62,843 bases of DNA from Thermoplasmatota archaeon (lineage in GTDB: Archaea > Thermoplasmatota > Penumbrarchaeia > Penumbrarchaeales > Penumbrarchaeaceae), in assembly GCA_965234725.1 (NCBI GenBank), contig CBDDUX010000071.1, forward strand, positions 1-62,843, written 5' to 3'. The first letter of the stretch is position 1; every line of letters starts with the position of its first letter. This document shows positions 7,930-43,476 of the stretch, one piece after another. Below the pieces are notes generated by a model. It did no database searches. It worked only from the letters and a program-made list of their open reading frames with translations, and was not told where the DNA came from. Both the position numbers and the translations under genes were made by a program.

Positions 7930-8095
7930 ACAAAACGACTAATGGTACAAGGTTAATATTCTTTTTCCAGGTGTGGTTCTTAACAACCTGCATTTATCAA
8001 ATTATCAATGTAAAAACAGGCATTATTTCCATGAATTTACAGAGTTTGCTTCGTTCATGTTTAATAACCATGGGAACATTCCATCTTCGGTTCAG

Positions 8096-9178
8096 ATGAT
8101 CGGGCTCTCTGGTAGATTGGTCCTCCCTGATGGGGTCGAGGATAAGACCATCATCATAAACGAAGGAAAGATCATCGATATCTTCGATGGATTTGATAAT
8201 GATCTGGATGATGTCACCGACCGATTCCAAGGAATGATATATCCCGGATTGGTCGATATGCATACCCACCTCGGGGATAACCTGGCAAGAGGGGCCCTTC
8301 CCTCCGATCTAAGACAGGTCGTCCTGCCTGGAGGTGTCAAGGATAGGTTCCTGAGAAATTCATCACGATCCTTGAAGGTGAAATCGATCAGGAGGTCCAT
8401 AGAAGAGATCTGTAAAGGTGTCACAAGTCTATTGGATTTCAGGGAAGGTGGGATCGAAGGCATCTCCATCCTTGAAGAGGCCGCTAAGGGGACCTTATCA
8501 GATATCCTGGTTTTAGCCAGACCAGAAAAGAGAGATGACGTTCCATCCCTATTAGAGAGATCATCAGGTCTGGGTCTTCCCTCATTGGATTCCTGTAATG
8601 CAGAACTGAGAGAAATAACCCAAAAAGCAGGCAAGATATTCTCATTCCATGCTTCAGAGATGTATCGGGAGGATATTGACCGAATACTCGATCTGCATCC
8701 GGACCTCCTCGTGCACATGATATCTGGGACCAGGGATGATTGGAATGAACTTGTAAACGCCCGGATCCCAGTGGTTGTCTGCCCCAGATCAAACTTCGCT
8801 TACTCACTTCCGTTATCCCTTGCTGTAATGAACGATTCAGGACTGGCGATAGGTCTCGGAACTGACAATTCCCTTTCTGTAAGACAGGATATGTTCAGGG
8901 AGATGGAGATGGCCTGGCTCATGTTGAGGGAGTTTGGTATGGAAGGATCGGAAGCAGCCAGAGAGGTCTTCTCCATGGCAATAGGTGAAAAAATGAAGGA
9001 TACGGACCTTATAACGAAAATGGGAGAGTCTATAAGATGGTGGGAACAGGGATGGCCCAGAAAGGGGGATCCGTCCCATCTTATGGTCCTGGATGAGAAC
9101 AGGAAAATGGGCTCCGATCCCATATCTGACCTTGTCCGGTTCAGAGGTCAGAACAACGTTTTATTCACGGGACCCTGA
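8096..9178 (+). CDS. Metal-dependent amidohydrolase (deaminase-like)
   Basis: PGLVDMHTHLGD, FHASE, LVHM, CPRSN, LGTDN; start moved to ATG 8096 behind TTTAATAA. Confidence 0.88.
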   Translation: MIGLSGRLVLPDGVEDKTIIINEGKIIDIFDGFDNDLDDVTDRFQGMIYPGLVDMHTHLGDNLARGALPSDLRQVVLPGGVKDRFLRNSSRSLKVKSIRRSIEEICKGVTSLLDFREGGIEGISILEEAAKGTLSDILVLARPEKRDDVPSLLERSSGLGLPSLDSCNAELREITQKAGKIFSFHASEMYREDIDRILDLHPDLLVHMISGTRDDWNELVNARIPVVVCPRSNFAYSLPLSLAVMNDSGLAIGLGTDNSLSVRQDMFREMEMAWLMLREFGMEGSEAAREVFSMAIGEKMKDTDLITKMGESIRWWEQGWPRKGDPSHLMVLDENRKMGSDPISDLVRFRGQNNVLFTGP

Positions 9179-9209
9179 GCTGAGAATCATTAAATAACGG
9201 GGGAATATA

Positions 9210-10235
9210 GTGGAGGTCATGGATGAGATCAGAAAACTGGGTCTTGTTATCGATACGGACCATTTTTTCAAGAGCTTCATCCCGAAGATCGAAGAGAAGT
9301 TCCAAGTAAGGACCTACAATCCCCCTCAGCTCACAGGAGATGTGGCAGGTCCCGAGGATATCAGGAAACTGGTCACAGGTCACATGAACGATCTGGTCAA
9401 CATCGAAAAGATCCATAACTGGGCGGATGTGGTCTTCTACGAGTGGGCTTCTCGTCTTCTTGTCAAAGGAACGAGGAAGAAAAAGAAATGCAAGATCGTT
9501 ACACGCCTTCACAGATACGAGGTCTATTACTATATTGAGAAGATCGACTGGTCCAAGGTGGATGGAGTGATCTTCGTCTGCGACGCGATCAGACGCAAAT
9601 TCCTTGACCATCCAAAGGTCAAAGAGGAATTCAAAGGAAAGACCTGTGTGATCTGGAATTACCTTGACCTGTCCGGTTTCTCATTCAGCGATCATTCCTC
9701 AACAAAACAGATAGGCATACTTGCATACGCCCAGCACAGGAAAAGGTTCTACAGCCTTGTACTTGCCCATAATATGGCCCTGAAGAAGCATCCGGACCTC
9801 GTTCTAAGGATCGCCGGGGTTCCCAAGGACAAGGAATATCTGGATGCCATCCGTATGCTCATCGAGAAATTGGGGATCGAGGAGAATGTCAAACTGGATG
9901 GATATGTGGAGGACCTCAATGCCTGGTATCAAGGTCTGGACATCATAGTATCTAACTCCACTCATGAATCGACAAACCTCACCCTCTTCGAAGGAGCGGC
10001 TTCAGGAGCGTACCCACTCTGCCATATATGGGACGGAGCGGAAGAATTCCTTCCGGAAGAGAACCTCTACACTGACGCAGAGGATTATGTCAGGCATATC
10101 GATGAATTCTATTCACTATCTGAAGAAGAAAGGTTAGAAAAAAGGAAGGGTATAAGGAAGATATTGGAAGATAGGTTCAGTGATGGAAAACAACTGAACG
10201 AACTTGTTTCCGAACTTGAAGGTTATTTCGAATAA
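9210..10235 (+). CDS. Glycosyltransferase family 4-like
   Basis: RLHRYE, RKRF, NSTHES...FEGAASG GT-B motif. Confidence 0.85.
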   Translation: MEVMDEIRKLGLVIDTDHFFKSFIPKIEEKFQVRTYNPPQLTGDVAGPEDIRKLVTGHMNDLVNIEKIHNWADVVFYEWASRLLVKGTRKKKKCKIVTRLHRYEVYYYIEKIDWSKVDGVIFVCDAIRRKFLDHPKVKEEFKGKTCVIWNYLDLSGFSFSDHSSTKQIGILAYAQHRKRFYSLVLAHNMALKKHPDLVLRIAGVPKDKEYLDAIRMLIEKLGIEENVKLDGYVEDLNAWYQGLDIIVSNSTHESTNLTLFEGAASGAYPLCHIWDGAEEFLPEENLYTDAEDYVRHIDEFYSLSEEERLEKRKGIRKILEDRFSDGKQLNELVSELEGYFE

Positions 10236-12069: not shown

Positions 12070-15000
12070 TTACTGTTGTTCTGGTGGTAGATAGGATTGG
12101 TCCTGTGCAGGTTGTGGTTCCTCGGGCGGGACCATACCTGGAGTCGGCTCAGGAGCCTGCGCAATTTCTTCCACCGGTGGCTGTTCATATGCAGGTGGTT
12201 GCTGATATCCACCTTCCGGGCCCTCCATGGGAGGAGGAGGTGTCATGTCCTGTCCTTCAATTGGAGCTGACGGAAGGGCCTCATATTCACCAGCTCCTTC
12301 TCCGGATGGTAGTGCCGGTCCTGCTGCTTCAGGGAAGGGCATTCCAGACATCAATGCCTGCAATTTATCCTGGGCGGCAAGGGCGTCCTCCTGCTGCTGG
12401 GCAACTAATGCCTCATGCTCCTTCTCGATCACTTCTGCGGTGTCTGACAGCCTGTCCTTCCTGAAGATCAATATGAATATCACAGCAAGGACAACGATCG
12501 CAATGATGATCATGATCAGGATGAATCCCCATTCCTCCAGGAAGGGTTTATCACCACCAGGGGTGTCAAAACGGTCGATATCCTGTTCTACATCTATGTT
12601 CAGCTTAAGGGAAGTTTCCTCGTAAAGACCAAGGGAATCCCTTACCCTCAATTTGATCTCGTATTCCCCTGAGACAGAGAAATCCCTGGTGTAGGAAAGG
12701 CCCTGATTCTCGATCCAGCCTTCACCGAAATTCCAGTCATATTCGAGTATCTCCTGGGAGTTCGGTATGTCCATATCAGGATCGTAGGATGCAGATGCCT
12801 CGAAGGTAATCGATCTTTGATCCACTTCAAGGGAGATCGATTCCCCATCAGTATGTGATGTGATCTCGGGTCTTGTTGGGGCATCGTTCACATTATCCAC
12901 TAGCAACCTGATCGGTGTGGAAGCGGAGACACCCTGGCTATCGGTTATTGTGAAGTTGAAGAAGTGCTCTCCAACAAGGGAATTTATTAGGAACACCGTT
13001 AGCCTTCCAGTGGTCTTCTCGAACATGATATCGTCTTCATCAAGAATGCCAGGTCCTATGACCTCTTCGAAGTTCGTGGAGAATTCGAATTCATCATCGG
13101 AATATTCCGAATCAGGATCTGATCCATCCACATCGATCACGGTTCTGGTTCCCTGAAGGTCCTGTATCAATGTCACCCTTCCCTCTTCGACCTCTATCTC
13201 CACACCCTTGAAGATCACCTTGTCGATGGAAGGTGCATCGTTCATATTGATAACAGTGATATTGACCCTAACGGTTGGGTTCTCCTCCATGTGAGAATTA
13301 CCGTCGAAAGCTTCGATAATCAGGAAATCCTCACCGGACCAATCTTCGTCAGGTATAAGGATGATCTCTCCCGTCACCTGGTCGATATCGGCGCTGATAT
13401 GTCTTTGTACCGTTACCCTGAATGAGAGATCATCTCCGTCCCTGTCCTCGAAAAGAGAATTCAGGTCCACCAGACCTCCCTGTGGAGTATCCTCAATTAA
13501 CTCCACTTCAACAAAGGGAATTAAATTGATGGGTGCGAAGTTGATGACCACGGTCTCGATCGTTACAGGGATGCCGTATTCGATACCGTCGAAGGACTTC
13601 AATACTGCTCTTATCTTGTCGCCCTCCCTTGTTAGATTATGATCCAAGGTCATGAGATTGGACCCGGAGGTTATCATTATCCAGGCTTCCTCTCTGTATG
13701 CATACCACTCTACAAGGTAGGTAATGGTGTCAATGGGATCGGTATCCTCGTCCGTTGATCCGTTGAGGATCATGATCTCCAGATCAATAAGGGCAGGAAC
13801 AGGTGCCTCAATGAAAGAGACAATTGGTTGGGTCGGAGGGGTGTTGGTAGTTCTGAAAGAGAAGGTGTCAGTATCCTCCAGACCCCAGGGATCGAATGCA
13901 ACGATCTCCACCCAGAATTCCTTGTTGTACCTCAAATTCCTGGTAAAGGAAAAGCTGTTCTCAGAGGAAAATGCATCGATCACAATGTGCTGGCCATCGA
14001 TGATACTATCCTGCCAGACATTGATGGTATAATCAATATCATCGTTGTTCCAATCTACAGCCAGGTCCCATGTTATCATTGGTCTGTTGTTGTGGGTATA
14101 GATAGGACCATGACCTAATGGGATCGGAAGCTCCGGAGCTCTGTTCTCCGCAAGCAACACCTCAAGATAGTAATCTCCGGTGTTCTGAAATTCTGAGTTC
14201 CAATATGGAACATAACCAAGCAACGAAACTGAGAGATTTACAGCGGTCAGATTTGTGACCTTTGTTCCAACAATGAAGAACTGTGGTGCTAATATGCTTG
14301 TCCTTCCATTTATGAATGTGGTATCCTGAGCGAGGATGTTACCATCAAGTGTGGAAACCATCAGGTTCGCTTCTGATATGTTCTCCAAGGTCATATTGTC
14401 CCTGACCCAGGTGGATATCTCCCAGAATACCCTGACCTCAGACTTGGCGTCCATGATAGAGATAAGAGAGGAATCTACAATGGTCGAATAAAGATGGGCT
14501 ATTGAATTCCCGCTCAATTTGATATCTATCGTATTAGATGATAGGTCAGAGCCTTCAAGGGTAACATTAGCTTTCTCCTCAAGTTCGAGAGCGGTCTCGG
14601 TGGAACCTGTGATCGATACGTTATCGAACATGGTAACACCCTCACCCATGATATTGATACCCACCTTATTCCCTGCCAGAACGCAGTTCTCTAGTGAATT
14701 ACCAGTGGTGTCTTCCATGACTATTCCGGTCTGGGGGTTGTCGATCAGATCGACCTCTTTGATCTCAACATCGCTTGAAAGGATGTTCATGGCATGCTGA
14801 TTCCCCCTGAATTCCCCTCCATTTATCAGGGGTGTGCTATCGCCCATGACTGTCAACCCGGTATCCGTATTGGAAACCGAGTTCAGCTGGAGTACAGGGC
14901 TTGAATCCATTACGATCATACCGAATTCGGAATCGGTGATCTCACAATCATAGACGGTCATCATGGAACCATTGACAATATAAACGTTCCCAAGGGAATT

Positions 15001-16263
15001 ACCTGAGATAATAGAGTCCGAGATCTGGCCAAAGCTGCCGTTTGAATAGAGACCGTAAAGTCTGTTATCGTGGATGTTTACCTTGGAAATTGAAGGGTTA
15101 GATGCTGAACCAGAAGGGATCCAGATCCCGTTGCCTCCGTTCCCGGATATTTCAACATTCCTTAGAGTCGCTGATACGGTGTCTACTTGGGCCGTGATAC
15201 CGTCCTTACCGTTGTTAGATACATCGCAGTCTACCATCTCAATACCCTGTATACCGCTAGCTGTGGATGTCTGCAGTATCACTCCCGGACCCAGGTTCCC
15301 ATTGAAGGTACTGTTCCGGAACTTGACCATTCCACCTCTTCCTGCAAGGAAACCTGTACGGTTGTTATTATCGAAATGACATCGATCGACAATGACATCT
15401 GCCGAATATCCACTACTCGAAACCGGGTCCACTTCGAGGCCGTCCTCGCACCCTGAAATAGTAGTATCCGCAAGGATACCGTCCGCACCCACAAAATAGG
15501 TGATACCCTGGACGGGAGCTCCGCTAATGGTGCAATTGGTGATCGAGGGTGATGACATGTCCCCTCCGACGAAAATGCCGTAGCGGGACGTGTTGTCAAT
15601 GGTCACTTTGTCGATCATCGGAGAGAAGCCTAACCCCTGGCTTGTTCCATCGGATTGGTCCGGATCGAAGATTGCAATCGCATTGCACTCCGTGTATTGG
15701 ATGACACAATTGTAGATGATTATGTCATTGTTGGCGCACATGATCCCGCCCTCATGGTCGGTGATATAGCCACCGGTCTCACCCCACATGTACCCGAAGT
15801 ATGAGTTATTTATACGGGCTGTTCCCCTCACGTAAAACTTCCAGTGGATACCCCAGGATTCCATGATATATGAATTGGGCGATATCACCTTCTCCCTATA
15901 TTGATAAGTTGTAGTATCCTGGGCGGTGAAGTTGCAGTTGTCATCGATGTAGAGCTCTCCTCCGAGTTCCACATAAAGACCGAAATCACCATCCTCATCT
16001 CCTCCCCACAACAATTTTGAATTGTTCATGTAGAGGATGCCTCCGCTTTCCACTCTTATATCTGCCGAAATCTCGTATTCAACATCGTTGATCTCCTTAA
16101 CCTCGCCGTTACCGACGATAATATCGCTTGTGATCTCAACGGGATCGCCCGCTCCTACATTCTGCCCCGCAGTGATTCCTGAAATTGGAACCAGTGTAAA
16201 GAATGCACTACCCAGCAGAACTAGGACTGACATAGCTACCAAGAACTCTTTTCGAATCATCAT
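12070..16263 (-). CDS. Giant surface protein: parallel beta-helix repeats, Ig/cadherin-like and PKD domains, C-terminal TM, Pro/Glu/Gln-rich tail
   Basis: Signal peptide after MMIRKEF (SD CAGGTGG); many I/V-x-x-N-x-x-x-G beta-helix repeats; YDWNFGEG PKD-like motif; TM FILIMIIIAIVVLAVIFILIF. Confidence 0.85.
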   Translation of the reverse strand: MMIRKEFLVAMSVLVLLGSAFFTLVPISGITAGQNVGAGDPVEITSDIIVGNGEVKEINDVEYEISADIRVESGGILYMNNSKLLWGGDEDGDFGLYVELGGELYIDDNCNFTAQDTTTYQYREKVISPNSYIMESWGIHWKFYVRGTARINNSYFGYMWGETGGYITDHEGGIMCANNDIIIYNCVIQYTECNAIAIFDPDQSDGTSQGLGFSPMIDKVTIDNTSRYGIFVGGDMSSPSITNCTISGAPVQGITYFVGADGILADTTISGCEDGLEVDPVSSSGYSADVIVDRCHFDNNNRTGFLAGRGGMVKFRNSTFNGNLGPGVILQTSTASGIQGIEMVDCDVSNNGKDGITAQVDTVSATLRNVEISGNGGNGIWIPSGSASNPSISKVNIHDNRLYGLYSNGSFGQISDSIISGNSLGNVYIVNGSMMTVYDCEITDSEFGMIVMDSSPVLQLNSVSNTDTGLTVMGDSTPLINGGEFRGNQHAMNILSSDVEIKEVDLIDNPQTGIVMEDTTGNSLENCVLAGNKVGINIMGEGVTMFDNVSITGSTETALELEEKANVTLEGSDLSSNTIDIKLSGNSIAHLYSTIVDSSLISIMDAKSEVRVFWEISTWVRDNMTLENISEANLMVSTLDGNILAQDTTFINGRTSILAPQFFIVGTKVTNLTAVNLSVSLLGYVPYWNSEFQNTGDYYLEVLLAENRAPELPIPLGHGPIYTHNNRPMITWDLAVDWNNDDIDYTINVWQDSIIDGQHIVIDAFSSENSFSFTRNLRYNKEFWVEIVAFDPWGLEDTDTFSFRTTNTPPTQPIVSFIEAPVPALIDLEIMILNGSTDEDTDPIDTITYLVEWYAYREEAWIMITSGSNLMTLDHNLTREGDKIRAVLKSFDGIEYGIPVTIETVVINFAPINLIPFVEVELIEDTPQGGLVDLNSLFEDRDGDDLSFRVTVQRHISADIDQVTGEIILIPDEDWSGEDFLIIEAFDGNSHMEENPTVRVNITVINMNDAPSIDKVIFKGVEIEVEEGRVTLIQDLQGTRTVIDVDGSDPDSEYSDDEFEFSTNFEEVIGPGILDEDDIMFEKTTGRLTVFLINSLVGEHFFNFTITDSQGVSASTPIRLLVDNVNDAPTRPEITSHTDGESISLEVDQRSITFEASASYDPDMDIPNSQEILEYDWNFGEGWIENQGLSYTRDFSVSGEYEIKLRVRDSLGLYEETSLKLNIDVEQDIDRFDTPGGDKPFLEEWGFILIMIIIAIVVLAVIFILIFRKDRLSDTAEVIEKEHEALVAQQQEDALAAQDKLQALMSGMPFPEAAGPALPSGEGAGEYEALPSAPIEGQDMTPPPPMEGPEGGYQQPPAYEQPPVEEIAQAPEPTPGMVPPEEPQPAQDQSYLPPEQQ

Positions 16264-16423
16264 ATGCCCCACCTGACACTCATCTCTATTAGGAACCTGA
16301 CCACTTGACACTATGGTCGGCAGTAGTTGGGTTGAGCTACTGAAGTATTATCCTCTTAACATATTTAATTTTCCATATTTCGAGAGCATGCTGGACAGGT
16401 GCAATCACCATTTTGAAGGCAGT

Positions 16424-19103: not shown

Positions 19104-21461
19104 TCATTTCCTCTTCTTGAAGAAAAGGTAACCCCCTGTTGCTACCAGAGCTATCATTATGACCATCGCCATGAATGCCCATGGAAAACCTGGACCTTCC
19201 CCCTCTGCTTGTTCTTGTGGAAGAGGGTTCATCAGGGAAACATCATAGAGGTTGCCATCAAGGATCAGGGCACCATCAGAATATCCCGCGGACGGTTCTG
19301 AAGGCTCCCAGATGGATACCATGGAATTAGGAAGAGGTGGGGATACCCTTAACTCCCCTTCGGCGGGTACCTCCAATCTCAACCTTACCCCGATGGAATA
19401 CTCTATCCTCAGTTCCATGAACTCCCGGTCCTTAAGAGGCCGAATGACCTTGAAACCCTGACCGTATACCCCGATAGCCCAATACATTCCAGTATTGGAT
19501 GGCTCGACATTCAACACCGTCTCCTTGGTACCTGTCAGTCTCGATCCAAGGAAGGGTTGCTCATAATCCACTATCCCATCAAACCCGAAATCCACAATAA
19601 ATGTGAGATCGCCAATGGTCCTGTCCTCGATGGAGATGGAATCATAGTTCATAATAATGGAAACCTCACTGGCACCTTCCGGCACCCACACCAATCTGGA
19701 CTGGTTCTGCACAAGCAATGGGCCATCCTGGTCCTGGGCATATCTAGCGAACTCACCCTTCCAGATGGCTTCCAGTGAATCCGTTTGAAGGACCTTCTCC
19801 GTCCCGTGGAATACTCCTCCCTCAAGATAGATCTTTATAGCGTCGTCAACGGTCCATTTGTCCGTGGGCCATCGGTCTCTAAGGTTCTGAAGGGTTAGGG
19901 AGATCCCAACGCATTTCTCGGCATCTATAAGACCATAACCCTGGGCCCAGTCCTGTGGGTGATCGTTCCAACCCAATTCGGATAATTCCCTGTCCGATGG
20001 TTCTGGAACCCCATTATCGGTTGACTCTTCGGAAAGAGGAACACCGTCCGGTGGGATATAGATCGCTGACTGCTCCATGATCCATTCGATCTCATGGATC
20101 CTATTCTGATCATTGGAAAGCCAGTTATCCGGGTCATCACCTGAATAGTCCTCGAACCGTTCAGAGATCGTCAAAGATGGTGCAGCCTGGAACATCAATG
20201 CCGCCAATCCCGATACATGAGGTGTGGCCATGGAGGTTCCCGAGATGGCAAGATAGTACGGGTTAGGGTTTCCTGCCAGCTTGGAGCCTGCAGATATCTG
20301 TGTAAGCCGAGCATGGGCGGACCAGATCTTCACACCCGGAGCTGCGATATCAGGGTATGTATGGTTCAAACCCTTTACACCTCTGGATGAAAAATAGGCG
20401 ACACCCGAACCATCCCTCTCAACAGCAGCTACTCCAATATTGGATGGAATTAGGCCTGTTGGAGAGGCCGAGAGCTCGGCACCGTCATGGTGGCCGCTTC
20501 CTGCATTTCCCATTGCGAAAACAACCAGAACGTTGTTCTCAAACGTGATCTTCTGGCAGATAATGGAGGTTGCATCCTGAGGATCATATTCGGACGCTCC
20601 CCCTCCCCAGGAGTTCGATACCACCTTGATGTTCATTGGATTGGGAGCCTTGGAGTTCTGATATACCCATTCCAGTCCGTAATATGTATTTGTAAGGGTT
20701 ATCCCGACATCACCCACACATAATCCTATGAGGTTCGCCCCCGGAGCCACTCCTGATCTGGCTCCTGCGGATGCGTCCCCGTTTCCCGCAATGGTTCCAG
20801 CGCAATGTGTTCCGTGGCCGTAGGAGGTGTCGGAATTCTCCAGTTCATACCAAGGTGCTCCAGGTATGTCGGCCTTGAGGTTCACGATCGTCTTCTCCTT
20901 GTAATCCAGATCAGGATGACCTGCATCTATACCAGTATCAAGGACAACAACGGTTATTCCAGATCCGTCGATCCTATCGAACTCCCTGTTGTTGCTCTCG
21001 ATCCATGAGTTCCATGCGACGGTCGCATTGATAGTGGAAAGGGACTGCTCCATCAAAAGGTCCAATTCACCGTCGTATTCTATCCAAACAGCAGAAGGAT
21101 GACCAGAAAGGGAAAGCACCTGTTCCCTGGTCCCTTCCAGAACCGCAATGGGGAGGACCTTCATTGTGGATATGTATACCATACCCATATTTTCAGCATC
21201 TTTGATCTCATCAGTTATTGGCCAATCCTCGAAACGTACCATTATCCTGTACGTGTCCATCCCATCATCCAATATATCCATGAGATATGGATCGATGATC
21301 GATGTGTTCGGTCTTGTCAGATCGCCATCTCCTGAAGCTGAGAATATCAAGGTTGAGCTCATGACCATGAGCATAGCCGTAAGGATCTGGACCAGTCTGG
21401 TTCTCCTCGATCCTGAGACCTCCATAGGTATCACCCGGGGCGTTATCAGGATCATTGCCAT
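19104..21461 (-). CDS. Membrane-anchored subtilisin-like S8 serine peptidase
   Basis: VVLDTG (Asp), HGTHCAG (His), GTSMATPH (Ser), AMGNAG oxyanion Asn; signal peptide and C-terminal TM + KKRK. Confidence 0.95.
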   Translation of the reverse strand: MAMILITPRVIPMEVSGSRRTRLVQILTAMLMVMSSTLIFSASGDGDLTRPNTSIIDPYLMDILDDGMDTYRIMVRFEDWPITDEIKDAENMGMVYISTMKVLPIAVLEGTREQVLSLSGHPSAVWIEYDGELDLLMEQSLSTINATVAWNSWIESNNREFDRIDGSGITVVVLDTGIDAGHPDLDYKEKTIVNLKADIPGAPWYELENSDTSYGHGTHCAGTIAGNGDASAGARSGVAPGANLIGLCVGDVGITLTNTYYGLEWVYQNSKAPNPMNIKVVSNSWGGGASEYDPQDATSIICQKITFENNVLVVFAMGNAGSGHHDGAELSASPTGLIPSNIGVAAVERDGSGVAYFSSRGVKGLNHTYPDIAAPGVKIWSAHARLTQISAGSKLAGNPNPYYLAISGTSMATPHVSGLAALMFQAAPSLTISERFEDYSGDDPDNWLSNDQNRIHEIEWIMEQSAIYIPPDGVPLSEESTDNGVPEPSDRELSELGWNDHPQDWAQGYGLIDAEKCVGISLTLQNLRDRWPTDKWTVDDAIKIYLEGGVFHGTEKVLQTDSLEAIWKGEFARYAQDQDGPLLVQNQSRLVWVPEGASEVSIIMNYDSISIEDRTIGDLTFIVDFGFDGIVDYEQPFLGSRLTGTKETVLNVEPSNTGMYWAIGVYGQGFKVIRPLKDREFMELRIEYSIGVRLRLEVPAEGELRVSPPLPNSMVSIWEPSEPSAGYSDGALILDGNLYDVSLMNPLPQEQAEGEGPGFPWAFMAMVIMIALVATGGYLFFKKRK

Positions 21462-21559
21462 ATATTCATTGCGGAGGAATCACTCTAACGATCGGACTTT
21501 CCCCCCATCCATGAAACTTACAGGAAGCAAAATATATGCAGCTATCCGTATTTCCATGG

Positions 21560-23059
21560 ATGTCCGAATGGGATGCCGATCGGTTGATATCAGCTTCGGA
21601 GGTTGAGAGGTGGTGCTACTGCCCACTCTCATGGTATCTGGAGAGGTTGGATTCCGAGGAGGATCCCCAGCTTCTTGAAGAAGGGTCCAAAGCCCATGGC
21701 AAGTTAGGGACGGAACTTGAAGGAATAAGGGATCGTGATCTGGAATCTCGAAGGTCAAGGAGGATCACTATCGCCTATGTCTCATTTGGGGCCATCATCC
21801 TTTCGATGTCACTTATGCTGCTCTTGCTTTCCAATCTGGGTTTCCTGAAGGGTCCCATATGGAGAATGGCCGTTGTGATCTCCTCGATATTTCTACTCGT
21901 AGTGTCCACCGCGATATACCTGACAAGGTCCTTCGCGCCAAGTAAAGGACCTAGGGTTAGTTTCTTCACTCTTTTCAGGAGGATGGAGAGGAGCAATTCA
22001 GTTGGTGGTTATTTCTCTGTTCTCTCCTATCTGTTCGGTGTCGTCCTGTTGATCAACGGCATCATCCTCCTTCGACCGCTTGGGATCCCTGATACCGCAA
22101 TAGTCACAGCTTTCACCATATCCCTTCTTTTCATGTATGGGATCCTGTTCGTTTCAATGATCTATTTCCTTAAAAGTACCAGAGAGGGAGGTGGGGAAAA
22201 AGACCTGAAATTGGGAATGCCAATGGTTATTGTTCTCCTTGTGTCTATTTCAGTTCTTTTCATAATGCTCTCTGATGATATCGATCCGGATGGTTACTTC
22301 GGTTGGGTCTTCCTGATATTGTCCCTACTTTGGTTCATAGGGGCCTTGGTGTACGATCTGATCAAAGGCAGAAAATGGCAAAGGAAACAGAAAAATGCAC
22401 AGAATAGTGAGGACCTTCCACTTGCCACAATTGCTCTGATCGCATCTGTCTTCACAGCAATGGCATTCCTTTCCCGTGGGGACAATCTTGAAAATTACAA
22501 CACTCTCTCGTTTGTGATCGCCGCCCTTTGGCTTGGAGGAGCTGTGATCTTCTTTATTAAGGGATCATCGGAGAGAAAGGAAGCAAAGACCGGTCTAGTA
22601 AAAATGAGCCTCCCGGAGAGATCAAGGATACTGCAGATCGATGATATTGGCTCAGGCAACAGAGGGAAACCCCTGGTATCCAAACGACATTACCTGATAG
22701 GATCCCCTGATATCCTCATAGAGGAGAACGGGAGAAGGATCCCAGTCGAGATCAAGACCGGTAAGGCACCTCCGAAACCGCACTTCAGCCATATAATGCA
22801 GCTTTCGGTCTATTTGATCTTAGTAGACATGAACTTCCATCAGGAAACACCATACGGATATATCGAATACATGCCGAAGAATGGCCCCAGGAAAAGGCAT
22901 TTGATCGAATGGGATATGATGACCAAAGCCCTGGTCCTCTCTAAAGTATCAGAGATAAGGGAGGGTGAAAGAAAGGGTGAAGCTCACCGTAATCATAACA
23001 GGGATGGCAAATGCAGGTACTGCTCAAGAAGGATCGATTGCCCGGAAAGGCTTGTTTGA
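21560..23059 (+). CDS. Cas4-like PD-(D/E)XK Fe-S nuclease with an inserted block of about 8 TM helices
   Basis: ISASEVERWCYCP, GSKAH, then 8 hydrophobic helices, then GSPDIL, PVEIKTG, QLSVY, KCRYCSRRIDCP; ORF track start 21536. Confidence 0.85.
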   Translation: MSEWDADRLISASEVERWCYCPLSWYLERLDSEEDPQLLEEGSKAHGKLGTELEGIRDRDLESRRSRRITIAYVSFGAIILSMSLMLLLLSNLGFLKGPIWRMAVVISSIFLLVVSTAIYLTRSFAPSKGPRVSFFTLFRRMERSNSVGGYFSVLSYLFGVVLLINGIILLRPLGIPDTAIVTAFTISLLFMYGILFVSMIYFLKSTREGGGEKDLKLGMPMVIVLLVSISVLFIMLSDDIDPDGYFGWVFLILSLLWFIGALVYDLIKGRKWQRKQKNAQNSEDLPLATIALIASVFTAMAFLSRGDNLENYNTLSFVIAALWLGGAVIFFIKGSSERKEAKTGLVKMSLPERSRILQIDDIGSGNRGKPLVSKRHYLIGSPDILIEENGRRIPVEIKTGKAPPKPHFSHIMQLSVYLILVDMNFHQETPYGYIEYMPKNGPRKRHLIEWDMMTKALVLSKVSEIREGERKGEAHRNHNRDGKCRYCSRRIDCPERLV

Positions 23060-23068
23060 TCCTATTTT

Positions 23069-23683
23069 TCAACTGAACCTGTTTACTTTACCAGGCCTTT
23101 TCTTGTGCATGTGGCTCCCGACAGAGGGTCTTACCTTCTCAGAGCCTATTCCCTTGTTCATCAATCCTCTGCTTCTCTTGCCGGAAGATGTGAGACCTCT
23201 ATAGACCCTGCCTGTGTGCTGGACCTCATTGATCCATTTTATTTTGGGATCGCTCAATATGACCGGATGATGAGGGTCGACGAGGATCACTTCGTAAAAC
23301 TTGTGCTTACCGTCCTCTCCGACGAAATATGAATTGAGGATCTCCATGTTCGGATATCTCTTGGCGGTCCTCTCTTCGGCAATCCTCTGAAGGTTCTTCT
23401 TCACCTTGAGCCGGATCATACCTCTTCTCTTGGCCCTTCTACCTTTTCTGATGGCCCTCTTCCTGAGGGAACCCATCCTGACCCTGGCCCTAACAATAAC
23501 ATAACCCTGTTTCGCTTTATATCCCAGGGCCCTTGCCCTGTCAAGCCTCAATGGCCTTTCCACCCTCTCAAAGGTAGGGCCATGTCTCCATTCCACAAGC
23601 CTCTGACGGTTTATCTCCTTCAACTCTCCATCATAAGGTCTGTTCCAGGTGTCATGAATATATCGGTAAACGGATTTTGACAT
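23069..23683 (-). CDS. rpl15e: 50S ribosomal protein eL15
   Basis: RLDRARALGYKAKQG, EILNSYFVGEDG, YEVILVDP, GRVYRGLTSSG. Confidence 0.98.
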   Translation of the reverse strand: MSKSVYRYIHDTWNRPYDGELKEINRQRLVEWRHGPTFERVERPLRLDRARALGYKAKQGYVIVRARVRMGSLRKRAIRKGRRAKRRGMIRLKVKKNLQRIAEERTAKRYPNMEILNSYFVGEDGKHKFYEVILVDPHHPVILSDPKIKWINEVQHTGRVYRGLTSSGKRSRGLMNKGIGSEKVRPSVGSHMHKKRPGKVNRFS

Positions 23684-23694
23684 GCGGATCACTT

Positions 23695-23829: not shown

Positions 23830-26800
23830 TTACTCTTCATCTTTGAGGTTCTCTTCTCTTATTTTCTTATTCTTTCTTTCAGACCTCTTCCTCCTGCTCC
23901 GCCGTATCGCCCTTGTCAGTAACCCTAAAAGCATAAGGAGAAGGGGGATGCCAATGATAAGAAGACAGCAAACCTGGCAGAAACGGCTCTCCCTCAGGCT
24001 AGTTCCAATATTCCCATCATCGTCATCTGTCCTTTTCTCCAGTATTATATCATCAACGGTGATATCCTCACTCGAGCTTGCATTTACATTGATATCAATG
24101 GAGACATACCCGCTTTTCTCGATATTCAGGTTCCTCTGCCCCCTGGCAACCTCAACAACGAAGTATCCTCTGGAATCAGTATAGGTATAGTCGCCTGTAT
24201 CAGCTTTTACCATTGCCTTATGGACCGGTTCTCCATCTGCATCTAAAACCCTCCCTCTTATCAGTGTGGTTGAAGGTTCCTGATCATCATCTATGATCCT
24301 GAATGATACTTCAATTTCCTTCTCATTCCCAGCTCCATCCATGGCGATCAGAACAACTGAATGCTCCCCTAGTGAAAGAGAGGTGAGTGTGAAACCTGTC
24401 ACCATTGAAGATAGTCCGAGAGGTGTCCCACCATCCACACTTAGCTCGAATCTTGAGATCCCGCTAAGCGTATCATACCCAGCCCATTTGACATCGAAAG
24501 TGGTATCGGTGGTATTGTAGCCATCTGCGGGGAATGTGAAGAACACCTCGGGTCCAGTTCTATCAAGAAGGACTTCTATTGAAACGATCTCAGTGTTCCC
24601 TGCCATGTCCTCGGCTTGAACAACTATTGTATGGATGCCTTCAGATGAAAGGGAGATGTTCGCACTTGTGTTCAGGCCTTGATCTTGCCAATCACCTTCA
24701 TCCACCTTCGTCCGATAACCTTTGACATCTGTTATTTCGTCCTCGCCTTCCCATTGGACATCAATGGTGGGTTGAGTGGTAATGGTTCCATTATCAGGAG
24801 AAAGGACCTCGAGATTGGGAGAGGATGTATCCACCGTGAATATCAGAGATGATGTTGCGTTGTTTCCCTGTGCATCGACAGCTCTCAGAATGATCGTTTG
24901 CTGACCATCTGTCAAGTTACTGGCAAGATAGGATGAATTCGACCCCATATCCTGCCAATCGACACCATCGGTGGAGATCTCCACATTTAGGACCTCAACA
25001 TTGTCGGTTACATTCCAGGTGACCTGGACCTCTCTTGAAGAGATGACACTACCGTTTGCAGGTGATAGGAATCCTATCTCGGGAGAGGTGGAATCTGGTA
25101 TGGCCCCTAAAAGGGCTGTACTCCTACCTTCTCCGTATCTGTTGATTCCTTTCAGATGATAAACATAGGTCGTTCCATCAGTTACATTCTCATCATTGTA
25201 ATGAAATATGATAGGACCAAGGTCAATTCTAAGGTCTGGACCTTCACCACCGGTTCTGAACAGTTTGAATCCTTCAAAGGATCCGTCCAGATCGATTCCT
25301 GGCAGTTCCCATTCCAAAAAAATTCTATCTTTAATTGCATGGGCCGAGAAGTTAATAGGTTCTGAAAGATAGGTGTAGGAAGGTTCTGCGAGTGGTTTCT
25401 GATCATATGATGTCGTCCCGAATATGAGGTAGGGCAGGTCCACTATCCCATCACCGGTCCCATCAGGAGAGTCCCAATCCCTCCAGTAATTGCCTCCGTT
25501 CATGTCATTCCAGATATTTTTATTACCATTATCCGTAGCCTGGATGTTCAGGCTGCTGAACGAATCATCGGACCCGTAATTATTGATGAACGTATTATCA
25601 ATGATCTTGTTACCACTGGAATTAACGCTTTCGATCCCATATCCTGAATTGTTGAAGATCAGGTTCCCATCCACTATGTGATCCTCTGCCACTCGAAGAC
25701 GGATACCGGATCCAATATTGTCCTCAATGATATTTGATGTGAATGATGAATCAACTGAAGTATATGAGAGGTCCAAACCCATCCCATGTCCCCGGATGAT
25801 GTTGTTCATTACGGTCAGATTCGATGGGGAGGAAACGTTCAATCCTTTGGAGCTCGTCGTACTTCCATTTCCTAAGATCTTGTTGTCATTGACGATCCCC
25901 ATTCTTGGAGAACTCAGGAATACGCCGTTCATTCGGAATCCGCTCACAAAATTTCCAGATAGAACAAGTCTTTCCGGGATGGTCAATGATATTCCATGGA
26001 TAGCATCACCGATCGAAGTAACTGTGTTATTGGTGAAGGTCGTTCCCTTGGTCTGGACCATAGTAAAGCCGACCTCAGTGATACTGGCCTGATTATCATC
26101 CACGGTAACATCCGCAGTCTGTGAAATAAAAGAAGCTTTGGGAACATAAACAAATACATTCCCTCTTATTGTGGCTCCCGTCCCGTAAAACATTGTTATG
26201 GTTGTCCCCGTCTGATTGTGAAAACTTGAATCCATGATGGAAACATCATCGCATTTGCTTATGTAGAACAGATCGGGGTCATCTGCGAATGTGCAGTTAT
26301 CGATATGGACCCCCTGGGAATCATAGGCACGGAGAAGTGCGTATCCCATGGAATGATCCATCCCGGTCAAATGGAAGTTGGTAACATTATTCAGGAAGAA
26401 CTGTGATGTATGTACCGGAATTGTCACACCTGTCAGATCCTGGTCAAAGTACTGCCTGACCGGAACATTATCTACAGTATTATTGGATGTGATCACCACT
26501 GTATCAAGTGTTCCCAGTGCGAATCCGTTTCCGACGAGTTCGTTATCGTAAAGAGTGATACTCGATGATGTGAAATAGCAGTTGATTCCGGGAGCAGTGC
26601 AGTTTGAAACAAGATTTCCCTGGATCAGAATATCAGCCGAGGTGCTGAAAGCCATTCCCGATCCACCAATACCTTTTACCTTGTTATCGACGATGCGGAT
26701 AAAATTGCTTCCAGAGACGTATATACCGTTACTCATTGAATCGGATATCTGATTGGATGATACTACGATATTCTTGGAGTCCTTCACACGAAGTCCGTAT

Positions 26801-27276
26801 TGACAAAGGTCTCCTTCTATGGTATTGTCAGTTATTCGAATTGAACTGCAAAGGTTGACATTGACATTCCACGGGCCATAAGAGTCACGGACCGTGTTGT
26901 TCGAGATCGTTATATTTGAACAGGAATCCAGCGATAGACCGTCCCCAAATTCTGAATTAAGAAGCAAATTGTTCCTTATAACAAGGTGTAAAGTGGTATC
27001 CTCGATCTCGATGCAGTGGTCCGATCCTGTTCCGTTGATGCTGTATGAGGATATGATATAGGGATCCAATTGAGACCCGGAACCAGGCCATGATTCCGCA
27101 ACCGCAGTATTGAGCAATTCCGTATCACCCTCAATGGAAATCGGAGAATGGTCAATATAGATCGATCTCGCTGGAGCTTCTCCTCCGACATAGGCTCCAT
27201 TTCCTATTGAAAACAATAGAGACGTTGTCAATATCATAATTAAAAAGGTATTCTTCCCATGTGTTCCGTTCATCAT
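23830..27276 (-). CDS. Surface protein: NosD/CASH beta-helix, FN3, Ig-like repeats, carboxypeptidase-regulatory-like domain, C-terminal TM
   Basis: GSGSQLDPYII, NN-rich beta-helix repeats, GGNYW, repeated D.AGN Ig ends, GRVLDADGEP, TM + basic tail. Confidence 0.88.
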   Translation of the reverse strand: MMNGTHGKNTFLIMILTTSLLFSIGNGAYVGGEAPARSIYIDHSPISIEGDTELLNTAVAESWPGSGSQLDPYIISSYSINGTGSDHCIEIEDTTLHLVIRNNLLLNSEFGDGLSLDSCSNITISNNTVRDSYGPWNVNVNLCSSIRITDNTIEGDLCQYGLRVKDSKNIVVSSNQISDSMSNGIYVSGSNFIRIVDNKVKGIGGSGMAFSTSADILIQGNLVSNCTAPGINCYFTSSSITLYDNELVGNGFALGTLDTVVITSNNTVDNVPVRQYFDQDLTGVTIPVHTSQFFLNNVTNFHLTGMDHSMGYALLRAYDSQGVHIDNCTFADDPDLFYISKCDDVSIMDSSFHNQTGTTITMFYGTGATIRGNVFVYVPKASFISQTADVTVDDNQASITEVGFTMVQTKGTTFTNNTVTSIGDAIHGISLTIPERLVLSGNFVSGFRMNGVFLSSPRMGIVNDNKILGNGSTTSSKGLNVSSPSNLTVMNNIIRGHGMGLDLSYTSVDSSFTSNIIEDNIGSGIRLRVAEDHIVDGNLIFNNSGYGIESVNSSGNKIIDNTFINNYGSDDSFSSLNIQATDNGNKNIWNDMNGGNYWRDWDSPDGTGDGIVDLPYLIFGTTSYDQKPLAEPSYTYLSEPINFSAHAIKDRIFLEWELPGIDLDGSFEGFKLFRTGGEGPDLRIDLGPIIFHYNDENVTDGTTYVYHLKGINRYGEGRSTALLGAIPDSTSPEIGFLSPANGSVISSREVQVTWNVTDNVEVLNVEISTDGVDWQDMGSNSSYLASNLTDGQQTIILRAVDAQGNNATSSLIFTVDTSSPNLEVLSPDNGTITTQPTIDVQWEGEDEITDVKGYRTKVDEGDWQDQGLNTSANISLSSEGIHTIVVQAEDMAGNTEIVSIEVLLDRTGPEVFFTFPADGYNTTDTTFDVKWAGYDTLSGISRFELSVDGGTPLGLSSMVTGFTLTSLSLGEHSVVLIAMDGAGNEKEIEVSFRIIDDDQEPSTTLIRGRVLDADGEPVHKAMVKADTGDYTYTDSRGYFVVEVARGQRNLNIEKSGYVSIDINVNASSSEDITVDDIILEKRTDDDDGNIGTSLRESRFCQVCCLLIIGIPLLLMLLGLLTRAIRRSRRKRSERKNKKIREENLKDEE

Positions 27277-35140: not shown

Positions 35141-36592
35141 TCAGGATAAGGGACTAACAGGCGGCCTTGGAGGAACAATTCTTACCTGACCAGGTCCTTT
35201 GTTTGTATCATTTGACATGATCTGGCCACCGGTTCCATTACCCGATCTGGAAGTTGGATTCTCTGAGCCAAAGGGGGTATCTTCCACCCTTTTGAAAGAT
35301 GGATTGGAAGTTATTGGCCCATCTTCCTCCAATTTCTTGAAGGTTGGAACCGATGGTCCTGTGACCTTCCCCTGGGAAGTCTGGGGATCCGTTTCCTCCC
35401 TCTTACCCCTTTTCGATATAATCAATATGACAATGGAGAGAATGAAAGCCGTTATGGCCAAAATTGATCCGGCTACGGATAAATAGAAACCCAGTTCAAA
35501 TGAGAGACCTTCCTGTGCACCGGACAATCTCTCATTCAACAGGTCCACTGTAGCGTTCATCCCCAACATGTACCAAACAGGACCAGCTGTTGATAGGATT
35601 GCAGAAGGGAGAATGATCCCCCAAAATGACCTTCCTTTGATCAGTATAAGGGTGACAGCGACCATTCCCACAAGGATGGATATTAATATCAAGGGCATGG
35701 CCAAAGGGATGCCCAGAGCCTGGAAGATTTTCATCCTTGCAACAGGTCTGATGTTGATCGGATTTGCACTTCCCGAAAGGGGAGACCTCTCTCCCCGGTC
35801 CCAGTAATCGTTCATGGTCGCATCGATCTCAATTATGAAACCTGCTGCTGGCTCACCTTCTGGAAACTTGACATCAATTGAGGTATGATAATCATCCCCT
35901 TTGTCCTTGAAAGATACTGAAAGCTTCTTTTCTTCTACCGTGAGATCCGGCCCTTCATACTCACCTGTATCAAGGTCATACCCGCTTCTGGCCTTGATCA
36001 CTATTCGGGAAAGGGTTATTGAGAATCGTTCCTTCTCTTCGGCACCCACCTGGTCCTCTAGATCGGTGCCAAGGAATGTAACCCTCACATCAATAGGACG
36101 TGAACCCCCTTCCATCCAGTATGGGACAAGGTCCGCCTTCAATGATACATTGAGATAGGCGGATGGGCTGCCGGATCCGCCGTATGTGATATTGGGATCG
36201 GGAGGGGTTCGAAACAGGAGTTCGTAAATGTAGGACTTTTCCTTGTAAGAATCGTAAATAATTCCAAGGTTCTCTAGAACCTCCCCCCGTACCTGGGGAT
36301 ATGCCTTCCACTTCTCTTCCCTGGACACATTTGAACCGATCCCCCCTCCAATTCCTCCGATCATTCCCCCACCGGATGAGGATGAGGAGGTCCCAAGGGA
36401 ATATTCAAAACCCACAGCATCGAAATCGGCCTTCAACGTGTAATCAAGGGGACCGACAGAACTTGTCCTGTCGAATGTGGCCCAATCGAAACCCGGGATC
36501 TTGTCGGTATCTGGTAATAAGGATATTCCGGAAACCAAAATTGAAAGAAGTAGTATCAAAGCAGAAATGCGGAAAAAGATCTTTTGATTCAT
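35141..36592 (-). CDS. Hypothetical membrane protein with extracellular domain and Pro-rich tail
   Basis: N-terminal signal/TM, Ser/Gly linker, about 3 C-terminal TMs, low-complexity tail. Confidence 0.75.
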   Translation of the reverse strand: MNQKIFFRISALILLLSILVSGISLLPDTDKIPGFDWATFDRTSSVGPLDYTLKADFDAVGFEYSLGTSSSSSGGGMIGGIGGGIGSNVSREEKWKAYPQVRGEVLENLGIIYDSYKEKSYIYELLFRTPPDPNITYGGSGSPSAYLNVSLKADLVPYWMEGGSRPIDVRVTFLGTDLEDQVGAEEKERFSITLSRIVIKARSGYDLDTGEYEGPDLTVEEKKLSVSFKDKGDDYHTSIDVKFPEGEPAAGFIIEIDATMNDYWDRGERSPLSGSANPINIRPVARMKIFQALGIPLAMPLILISILVGMVAVTLILIKGRSFWGIILPSAILSTAGPVWYMLGMNATVDLLNERLSGAQEGLSFELGFYLSVAGSILAITAFILSIVILIISKRGKREETDPQTSQGKVTGPSVPTFKKLEEDGPITSNPSFKRVEDTPFGSENPTSRSGNGTGGQIMSNDTNKGPGQVRIVPPRPPVSPLS

Positions 36593-42811: not shown

Positions 42812-43476
42812 TGTTGAGGGAAATATTAGATAACCATTTAATGAGATATGGCTTTATACCGGATCAAGGGGCCTTGTATTTGAGGTTCGACGACAGGTTC
42901 GATCCGCTTCTGGAGGAAATTGCGGAGAAGGTGGTAACATGCACCAAATGTCCTCTTTCGGAAAGCAGGGTCACCGCTGTACCAGGAGAAGGTCCCCAAC
43001 ATGCCGCCATAATGCTGGTGGGTGAAGCACCAGGGGCAGCGGAGGATGAGTCGGGGCGTCCTTTTGTGGGACAATCCGGTCAGCTCTTGTCGGACCTCAT
43101 GAAGGGAGTGGGAATGAAAAGGGAGGATGTGTTCATCACATCGATCCTGAAGTGCAGACCCCCTGATAACAGGGACCCGAAACCTGAGGAAGTAAGGACG
43201 TGCGCCCCTTTCACCCTTGCACAACTTGACTCGCTTTCCCCGATCGTTACAATAACCCTTGGCAATTCTGCATATGACCTCTTCTCGTCAACATTCTACC
43301 TGCCAAAGAAGAAGGTTGGCGAGGTAAGGGGAAAAGTGTTCAGACTCCACTCCACCGGTGCCCGTTTCCTTATCCCCACCTATCATCCAGCTGGTCTCTT
43401 GTATAACAGGAAGCTGATCCCTCAGTTCAAACAGGACCTTGAAACTGCTCTGAAATATCTCAAGATGAACCCCTGA
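42808..43476 (+). CDS. udg: Uracil-DNA glycosylase family 4 (Fe-S)
   Basis: CTKCPL, GEAPG, GRPFVG, KCRPPDNR, TYHPA. Confidence 0.95.
   Translation: MMLREILDNHLMRYGFIPDQGALYLRFDDRFDPLLEEIAEKVVTCTKCPLSESRVTAVPGEGPQHAAIMLVGEAPGAAEDESGRPFVGQSGQLLSDLMKGVGMKREDVFITSILKCRPPDNRDPKPEEVRTCAPFTLAQLDSLSPIVTITLGNSAYDLFSSTFYLPKKKVGEVRGKVFRLHSTGARFLIPTYHPAGLLYNRKLIPQFKQDLETALKYLKMNP

Follow-up and report, generated by a model that had tools for sequence, protein, structure and literature searches.

We analysed positions 1 to 62,843 of contig CBDDUX010000071.1 of a Thermoplasmatota archaeon (assembly GCA_965234725.1), which we call the window. It is a stretch of ordinary archaeal chromosome with genes for GAPDH, glycosyltransferases, biotin ligase, an aIF2-gamma-like GTPase, uracil-DNA glycosylase, transporters and very large surface proteins. 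Between an S8 subtilase gene and rpl15e lies a gene for a Cas4-like protein in which the nuclease sequence is interrupted by eight hydrophobic helices. Cas4-type Fe-S nucleases have been known as soluble proteins that act in CRISPR adaptation, in repair and in phage recombination. We consider it very probable that the window protein is an integral-membrane, CRISPR-independent solo Cas4-family Fe-S nuclease, the catalytic domain of which is reassembled on the cytoplasmic face of the membrane. It would thus belong to a known enzyme family with a new architecture, in which the chain leaves the fold and re-enters it via an even number of helices.

A Cas4-like gene interrupted by eight predicted membrane helices

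The gene, its parts and its motifs are as follows, all on the plus strand. Residue numbers are counted throughout from the upstream ATG at 21536.

21530..21537: AAATATAT, a TATA-box-like element read from the sequence, about 25 nucleotides 5' of the ATG at 21560
21560..23059: nuclease gene, stop codon included, 499 amino acids (from the list of open reading frames; relatives start at the equivalent of M9)
21560..21769: N-terminal nuclease piece, predicted cytoplasmic, residues 9-78, holding C29 and G50-x3-H54; predicted local distance difference test (pLDDT) 88-98
21611-21625: WCYCP, residues 26-30, first Fe-S cysteine motif
21683-21697: GSKAH (G50-x3-H54), residues 50-54, metal-site motif
21770..22558: eight-helix membrane block, residues 79-341 (Kyte-Doolittle hydropathy and AlphaFold helices)
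21770-21826: transmembrane helix 1 (TM1; this and the next seven by hydropathy)
21866-21922: TM2
22007-22075: TM3
22091-22159: TM4
22211-22273: TM5
22307-22363: TM6
22415-22471: TM7
22502-22558: TM8
22559..23056: C-terminal nuclease core, predicted cytoplasmic, residues 342-507, holding PD, E-x-K, Q-x3-Y and the Cys triad
22700-22711: GSPD (P391-D392), residues 389-392, catalytic motif
22748-22756: EIK (E405-x-K407), residues 405-407, catalytic motif
22799-22813: QLSVY (Q422-x3-Y426), residues 422-426, motif
23012-23041: CRYCSRRIDC (C493-x2-C496-x5-C502), residues 493-502, Cys triad

The frame is unbroken from the in-frame ATG at 21536 (21536..23059, plus strand, 507 amino acids). The consensus of the relatives places the start at the second ATG, at 21560, giving 499 amino acids. 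We prefer this start because the relatives begin there and because the spacing of AAATATAT suits a leaderless mRNA. A TATA box about 25 nucleotides before the ATG, together with a leaderless mRNA, is expected from archaeal promoters, and the position of the element suggests that it is a putative TATA box from which a leaderless transcript is made. The gene limits proposed from the sequence only, 21560..23059, are therefore backed by the relatives and by the TATA-like element. Scanning for bacterial-type promoters and terminators found nothing, but this type of scan is uninformative for an archaeon.

The nuclease domain has the motifs and fold of Cas4

The sequence-only reading had listed six Cas4/RecB hallmarks as intact, and all six are present. 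It had put the insert between the first cysteine and the catalytic core. The G-x3-H motif precedes the insert, so the membrane block lies between G-x3-H and PD and does not follow the first cysteine directly. The WCYCP motif, named as the site of the first Fe-S cysteine, is present, and the conserved cysteine within it is C29 (at least 90%), C27 being Ser in the consensus of 43 sequences. In the same alignment, G50, H54, D392, E405, K407, Q422, Y426 and the Cys triad are invariant. H54, Q422, Y426 and the catalytic and Cys residues are also invariant or at least 90% conserved in a broader alignment of 143 sequences, in which K407, C493, C496 and C502 are invariant and D392 and E405 reach at least 90%.

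Comparison with family profiles, which had been proposed as a check, placed the protein above the cut-offs of Pfam PF12705 PDDEXK_1 (43.8 bits against 22, E 3.8e-11, residues 374-503) and PF01930 Cas_Cas4 (28.5 bits against 22.7, E 1.9e-6). Among the PADLOC models, those for Cas4 match best (E 1.3e-16) and the only other matches are weak ones to DruK. The best sequence matches among solved Cas4 structures are Pcal_0546 (4r5q, E 2e-4) and SSO0001 (4ic1, E 3.2e-3), at about 20% identity, and the N-terminal piece of the window protein aligns with the N-terminus of Pcal_0546. Searching with the predicted structure in Foldseek gave SSO0001 as the best fold match (E 5.9e-6); type I-C Cas4 (8d3l_J) matched the core over 154 columns with a root-mean-square deviation (r.m.s.d.) of 3.5 Å, and further matches were MGME1, Dna2, ACE1, AdnAB, lambda exonuclease and Exo5. 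SSO0001 and Pcal_0546 share with the window protein the N-terminal Cys helix, G-x3-H, the catalytic Asp, E-x-K, Q-x3-Y and C-x2-C-x5-C. Unlike the window protein, they are soluble and about 200 residues long, whereas the window protein carries 263 residues with eight helices between G-x3-H and the catalytic Asp and has no cas context.

All four cysteines of a 4Fe-4S site, C29 and those of C-x2-C-x5-C, are present, and cluster binding is predicted. From the conserved residues, we infer a metal-dependent DNA exo- or endonuclease acting on DNA at, or crossing, the cytoplasmic membrane.

Topology and predicted reassembly on the cytoplasmic side

Hydropathy places the eight helices at 21770-22558, in agreement with the earlier estimate of about 21770-22560, and both AlphaFold models have eight long helices at these positions. 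The outer loops of the window protein are 2-13 residues long, and the inner loops are basic and 17-25 residues long. Lys and Arg are more frequent on the side of the termini in 127 of 128 family proteins with an even helix count; for the eight-helix forms, the means are 27.1 on this side and 4.2 on the opposite side. Both soluble pieces are likely to be cytoplasmic because of the even helix count and the positive-inside charge bias; the sequence-only reading had placed both on one face from the helix count. A cytoplasmic placement also suits the need to receive an Fe-S cluster.

The model of the whole protein, built with the 143-sequence alignment, has a mean pLDDT of 81.5 (86-98 in the soluble parts) and a predicted template modelling score of 0.76. 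In this model, residues 44-100 and 318-356 form continuous helices that run from the membrane (TM1 and TM8) into the nuclease domain.

Convergence of the four cysteines in a model had been suggested as a check of the reassembled domain. We modelled the two soluble pieces as separate chains, residues 9-76 and 345-507, with the 4Fe-4S cluster included. The interface score ipSAE was 0.87, 0.86 and 0.87, as against 0.54, 0.00 and 0.00 for the controls; of 157 solved complexes, 116 attain the mark for this score, as do 2 of 215 mismatched pairs. The docked partner had a pLDDT of 57-61, and at least 67% of the contacts were common between runs. In the modelled interface, residues 12, 14-37 and 39, including C29, face residues 381-391, 417-429, 467-487, 492, 496-498 and 501-504, including C496 and C502, so that the C29 region is predicted to meet the face of the triad. 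The docking supports binding of the N-terminal piece to the core and shows that the two still resemble two parts of one Cas4 domain.

The membrane part itself has no significant Pfam match; Holin-X and DUF1761 came up in this search and were rejected, being below the cut-offs. The only matches to residues 72-348 in a structure atlas were Thermoplasmatota clusters, whose scores of 0.81 and 0.75 fall short of the useful range.

A family with two, four or eight helices

A word-indexed search retrieved 46 proteins (clusters at 90% identity) of the eight-helix form, most of them about 499 residues long. They are mostly 37-92% identical to the query over 97-98% of its length, the weakest being a protein of 471 residues at 32% identity. 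The named ones all come from Thermoplasmatota metagenome-assembled genomes (MAGs). The sequence-only reading had allowed that the family might already be annotated, and its members indeed carry the automatic labels 'PD-(D/E)XK nuclease family protein', 'Dna2/Cas4 domain-containing protein' and 'CRISPR-associated exonuclease Cas4'.

When 1.84 billion cluster representatives were searched with a profile, 1521 proteins came up at E<=0.001, including 86 at E<=1e-30. We analysed 146 listed representatives (P0048-P0193), of which 65 have both the N-terminal Cys motif and the C-terminal triad. By a crude hydropathy threshold, these 65 carry no helix (1), one (5), two (18), three (1), four (30) or eight (10), and 58 of them have 2, 4 or 8 helices. 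A soluble form of 198 residues with all motifs also exists (P0133). In alignment A2, 9 of the 14 proteins with an odd count become even at a lower threshold. A search with a four-helix member found 1300 proteins at E<=0.001, and the best 120 of these 1300 are about 330 residues long.

In a scan of one genome per species, 282 relatives were found and 69 loci were kept, all from archaeal MAGs assigned to Thermoplasmatales, Thermoplasmata, the DHVE2 group, Methanomassiliicoccales, Halarchaeoplasma and unclassified 'Methanobacteriota/Euryarchaeota'. The nuclease gene could be called in 65 of them, three others being cut by contig ends and one having no match to the motif filter. All six motifs are present in each of the 65 genes, and the predicted helix number is four in 38, eight in 18, three in five, seven in two, and two and nine in one each.

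The insertion site is constant across the two-, four- and eight-helix forms, with similar flanking distances. The median distance from the His of G-x3-H to the first helix is 24, 23 and 26 residues, respectively, and that from the last helix to PD is 45.5, 46 and 50 residues. Compared by hhalign, the four-helix module matches TM5-8 (E 1.2e-9, probability 96.4%, 112 columns) and, weakly, TM1-4 (E 3.5e-4, probability 37.5%). A direct comparison of the two halves of the eight-helix block gave no match (E 0.047). Helix pairs 5-6 and 7-8 had been described as alike, with a hairpin duplication suggested; the resemblance holds weakly and is essentially one of TM6 to TM8 (hairpin 3 against hairpin 4, E 6.4e-5, probability 64%, 24 columns), and the other five hairpin pairs were not significant by hhalign (E 0.008 or worse). 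The eight-helix block is best read as a four-helix module with a diverged, possibly duplicated second module, the eight-helix form being most likely derived from the four-helix module. The idea of a duplication comes from the comparison with the four-helix module.

A quick maximum-likelihood tree was computed from the C-terminal domain alone (133 rows, membrane columns omitted). The eight-helix clade of the window forms one group of 20 rows (SH-aLRT 99), nested in a mostly four-helix clade of 115 rows (support 96). Other eight-helix proteins stand elsewhere in the tree, and well-supported branches force at least four changes of the eight-helix state. By this tree, the helix number has grown more than once, with its parity kept even. 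The tree follows the taxonomic groups, and the family is apparently a large, vertically inherited one of Thermoplasmatota. Over 42 comparisons, the mean identity is 40.6% in the membrane part as against 61.6% in the C-terminal core.

Single-helix bacterial relatives

The nearest outgroup in the tree consists of proteins of about 175 residues, in which one N-terminal membrane helix is followed by the same linker and the Cas4 core. This form comprises at least 730 clusters at E<=1e-10. Among the 120 listed of these 730, 117 have the single N-terminal helix, 119 have the Cys triad, and 102 have no Cys in the first 60 residues. One member is named as coming from an Anaerolineales bacterium, and the databases label the form Cas4. 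Like the window protein, these relatives have the Cas4 core, HRxH and the Cys triad and are tethered just before the same linker; unlike it, they have only one helix and lack the N-terminal piece with the Cys and G-x3-H. Attachment to the membrane thus recurs within this branch of Cas4. P0134, P0136, P0140, P0150 and P0166 are examples of the single-helix form, with an incomplete four-Cys cluster site.

Genomic context

The genes flanking the nuclease gene are those named in the sequence-only reading:

19104..21461, minus strand: S8 subtilase with a C-terminal hydrophobic tail (Pfam Peptidase_S8, E 2.1e-44), divergent upstream neighbour
23069..23692, minus strand: rpl15e, ribosomal protein L15e (Pfam Ribosomal_L15e, E 3e-75), convergent downstream neighbour

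Within the eight-helix clade, the subtilase gene lies upstream on the opposite strand within 364 nucleotides in 15 of 19 loci, and rpl15e lies downstream in convergent orientation within 260 nucleotides in 18 of 19. The synteny with rpl15e is kept although the identity of the nuclease drops to 38%. The nuclease gene of this clade stands alone on its strand, and both neighbours are syntenic ones for which no functional link is implied. In a separate eight-helix lineage, represented by locus L025 (gene 8001-9689), rpl15e is immediately upstream of the nuclease gene and in the same orientation, so that adjacency to rpl15e recurs in two orientations. In the DHVE2 group, the neighbours are FeoB and a FeoC-like gene, and in Methanomassiliicoccales GlmS and a GlmU-like gene.

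The absence of cas1, cas2 and an array from the window, reported earlier, agrees with our Pfam and repeat scans. No Cas family was found among the other 42 open reading frames of at least 90 amino acids in the window, and no CRISPR array in the window and the 69 related loci (70 sources, 991 kb). PADLOC identified neither Cas1 or Cas2 nor a recognisable defence system among the representatives of the 223 neighbour clusters within 5 kb. Its matches were generic: phospholipase D (PLD), subtilase, class-V aminotransferase, a Csa3-like winged helix-turn-helix protein, ATPases and one HerA. The last is encoded at L045:4645-6177 (minus strand; HerA-like ATPase, E 1.7e-53), two genes from a nuclease gene of four-helix size, at this single locus. 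Phage records gave no match, and a plasmid collection gave one weak match to the core only; both collections hold few archaeal elements.

Five neighbour clusters (c14, c16, c19, c28 and c45) were rejected as partners, since their low-complexity translations make them look like spurious out-of-frame or antisense reading frames of GC-rich DNA. Cluster c19 overlaps rpl15e on the other strand in three of the four loci where it is a direct neighbour, and in L002 only partly.

An upstream gene in one four-helix lineage

In 25 loci of a GC-rich four-helix lineage, the nuclease gene is directly preceded on its own strand by a gene that abuts or overlaps it, with a gap of -170 to +24 nucleotides. Its product of about 690 residues has a signal-peptide-like N-terminus, a lamin-tail domain (LTD) and two PLD domains, and most copies end with a C-terminal hydrophobic anchor segment followed by a basic tail. 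The PLD domains are closest to DrmC (85.7 against a cut-off of 133) and NucT (55.9 against 297), all below the cut-offs. The extracellular nuclease ExeM carries a lamin-tail domain (PMC6085458), Hvo_1477 is described as an extracellular LTD-bearing nuclease (PMC5118699), and NucT, a PLD nuclease, has been linked to purine salvage and natural transformation (PMC5714352). These three proteins resemble the LTD-PLD partner, not the window protein; the features that the partner has in common with this set are a signal peptide, a lamin-tail domain, a nuclease-type domain and, mostly, a membrane anchor. The arrangement, which we take as a lead, suggests that an outside nuclease may be paired with an inside nuclease in this four-helix clade.

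The LTD-PLD genes lie in loci L023-L063 (25 loci; for example, L024:3734-5824, plus strand), and the overlap reaches 170 nucleotides in another frame. An overlap so long between two conserved genes is unusual, and the conserved tail of the upstream reading frame may do no more than mirror the conserved N-terminus of the nuclease.

A probable integral-membrane solo Cas4

According to the reading that we favour, one complete RecB-like PD-(D/E)XK domain with a four-Cys 4Fe-4S site would have its chain split by eight membrane helices, and the 70-residue N-terminal piece and the 165-residue C-terminal core would reassemble in the cytoplasm into one catalytic domain. In the predicted structure, TM1 and TM8 run unbroken into the nuclease domain and would hold it close under the membrane.

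Several observations weigh against this reading or limit what it says about function. Cluster binding, nuclease activity and substrate are all deduced from conserved residues. Against the NCBIfam cas4 model TIGR00372, the window protein scores 56.1 bits, split over two stretches, and so stays under the cut-off of 65, which two-helix (84.9 bits) and four-helix (70.3 bits) relatives pass. Foldseek cannot bridge the insert: the alignments with 4ic1 that span about 200 columns have an r.m.s.d. of about 20 Å, and the match is to the core only. Likeness to solved Cas4 structures may account for the docking pass, and one of the controls scored 0.54. Some members give odd helix counts by the crude hydropathy method. 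Conserved polar residues are scarce in the membrane helices (the invariance of N174, Y201, W266 and W332 is confined to the eight-helix clade), and nothing indicates a channel or an enzyme in the membrane part. No neighbour is common to all clades, so the context says little about the role. The LTD-PLD gene is absent from the window and from the flanks of the eight-helix clade; its link to the nuclease is limited to one lineage and could be a single inherited arrangement, and the PLD protein could act on lipids instead of DNA.

Solo-Cas4 is the term for Cas4-family genes outside cas operons, taken from Hudaiberdiev 2017 as quoted in PMC13621843, and the window protein is such a case, with a Cas4-family domain away from other cas genes in the window. 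The solo-Cas4 of Methanosarcina mazei, as described in Rentz et al. 2025 (PMC12501428), carries a 4Fe-4S cluster, cleaves DNA in a Mn2+/Mg2+-dependent manner and adopts a high oligomeric state. It is, like the window protein, an archaeal Cas4-family protein outside CRISPR loci; it was purified as a soluble complex of 318 kDa (PMC12501428) and its abstract names no membrane segment, whereas the window protein is a predicted polytopic membrane protein. It is the only solo Cas4 with biochemical data met in the literature found. Consistent with the earlier remark that no characterised example was known, no description of a membrane-inserted Cas4 was found in the open-access full-text literature. 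The word 'transmembrane' occurs nowhere in the main text of the Cas4 phylogenomics paper (Hudaiberdiev 2017, PMC5704561), and the PD-(D/E)XK survey of Steczkiewicz 2012 (PMC3424549) catalogues transmembrane elements in its supplements, which might list such forms. The family is thus already in the databases under a misleading Cas4 name, with its membrane form not described in the print found.

The favoured reading would make this protein a clean example from nature of how a cofactor-stapled domain can accommodate up to about 260 residues of inserted membrane sequence, and would place a conserved nuclease at the inner membrane face across a whole archaeal phylum. Thousands of 'CRISPR-associated Cas4' database entries would then be mislabelled.

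Possible roles and alternative explanations

DNA uptake, entry defence and repair had been suggested as roles; the gene surroundings speak against a defence island and offer a weak lead to extracellular-DNA processing. Our leading guess, which is tentative, is that the protein serves the cytoplasmic step of DNA uptake or salvage at the membrane. DNA handling at the archaeal membrane, be it uptake, salvage or entry defence, is poorly understood, and the family offers a concrete gene to test.

A role as a housekeeping nuclease for DNA maintenance at the membrane, acting for instance on chromosome ends attached to it, on replication or segregation intermediates, or in repair, is doubtful but would fit the wide family, its apparently vertical inheritance and the stable synteny, as well as the fold matches to the repair and replication nucleases Dna2, MGME1, AddB and Exo5 and the HerA-like ATPase near the nuclease gene of L045. 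No repair gene, however, is a conserved neighbour, HerA occurs in one locus, and this role leaves the need for 2 to 8 membrane helices without a reason.

Membrane-anchored effectors are common in defence systems, and a nuclease held at the inner membrane face could be stationed there against viruses or plasmids, degrading DNA as it enters or being triggered by a disturbance of the membrane. The weak matches to DruK of Druantia, a PD-(D/E)XK protein (E 1.4e-8), point in the same direction. We regard this role as unlikely, since the genes sit in stable housekeeping synteny and not in a variable island, the neighbours have only generic PADLOC matches, the tree is in line with the taxonomic groups, a conserved partner gene for a sensor is missing, and the collections, which hold few archaeal elements, gave no phage copies and only the one weak plasmid match to the core.

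The uptake idea can be carried further, to a rather improbable form in which the family is the cytoplasmic-side component of an archaeal route for uptake or salvage of extracellular DNA, ComEC-like but built from unrelated parts. Subunits would oligomerise in the manner of soluble Cas4 proteins, known to build rings or large oligomers, so that 2, 4 or 8 helices line a membrane passage; the membrane-anchored LTD-PLD nuclease, encoded upstream in one clade, would cut DNA outside, and the DNA would thread straight on into a ring of Fe-S nucleases. The bacterial relatives with one helix would then represent a simpler tethered form. ComEC, the bacterial competence channel, is a polytopic protein with a metallo-beta-lactamase nuclease domain. 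It is mentioned in PMC5118699 and serves here as a working analogy, as a polytopic membrane protein with a nuclease domain that handles DNA at the membrane. The folds are unrelated, the channel role of ComEC is established in bacteria, and the window nuclease is predicted to face the cytoplasm; neither a competence domain nor a metallo-beta-lactamase domain was matched in the window protein by Pfam or NCBIfam.

It is very unlikely that function resides instead in the membrane block, as a transporter, channel or sensor, with the Cas4 domain left as an inactive remnant of structural or regulatory use. The membrane part does appear to be under selection, as judged from the identities given above, and the helices expanded repeatedly, with the eight-helix state changing at least four times. 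However, the catalytic and Cys residues are invariant or nearly so in 143 sequences, whereas the helices have no polar residues conserved across the family, no significant Pfam match and no look-alike in the structure atlas above 0.81.

The annotation of many relatives as CRISPR-associated raises the question of a Cas4 of CRISPR adaptation that trims prespacers with a Cas1-Cas2 whose genes lie elsewhere in the genome. The best matches of the window protein are to Cas4 models (Cas_Cas4 of Pfam, Cas4 of PADLOC), and the two- and four-helix relatives pass TIGR00372. We consider this explanation highly improbable all the same, for the window protein stays below that cut-off, no cas gene is among the 42 open reading frames of the window, no array is in the window or the 69 loci, and no Cas1 or Cas2 is among the 223 neighbour-cluster representatives. 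A membrane-fixed nuclease would also suit the soluble Cas4-Cas1-Cas2 complex poorly (8d3l and 7mi4, here fold matches only). The name CRISPR Cas4 should not be used for this protein.

Another possibility, that an assembly chimera or fused gene call has united Cas4 fragments with a membrane protein, can practically be dismissed, since, in answer to the check proposed earlier, homologues keep the insert: the same architecture recurs in the 46 close full-length relatives from many independent contigs, in the 65 callable genes from 69 loci and in 58 of the 65 representatives, and the reading frame is uninterrupted.

Further features of the window and related loci

Two giant surface proteins of 1413 and 1148 residues are encoded on the minus strand at 12070-16311 and 23830-27276, their domains being NosD/right-handed beta-helix and Ig-like/PKD. 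The second protein ends in a hydrophobic tail at the C-terminus, and its gene keeps synteny with that of the nuclease in many eight-helix-clade loci. An open reading frame of 483 residues at 35141-36592 (minus strand) has no Pfam match at E<=1e-6. The same holds for two back-to-back open reading frames of 838 and 378 residues at 39162-43476 (plus strand); a gene of the uracil-DNA glycosylase family follows them with overlapping stops and starts, and the three may be an uncharacterised DNA-repair operon. At 46840-53165 (plus strand), a protein of 1014 residues with PQQ-like beta-propeller repeats is encoded adjacent to one of 1094 residues with Laminin_G_3 and caspase (Peptidase_C14) domains.

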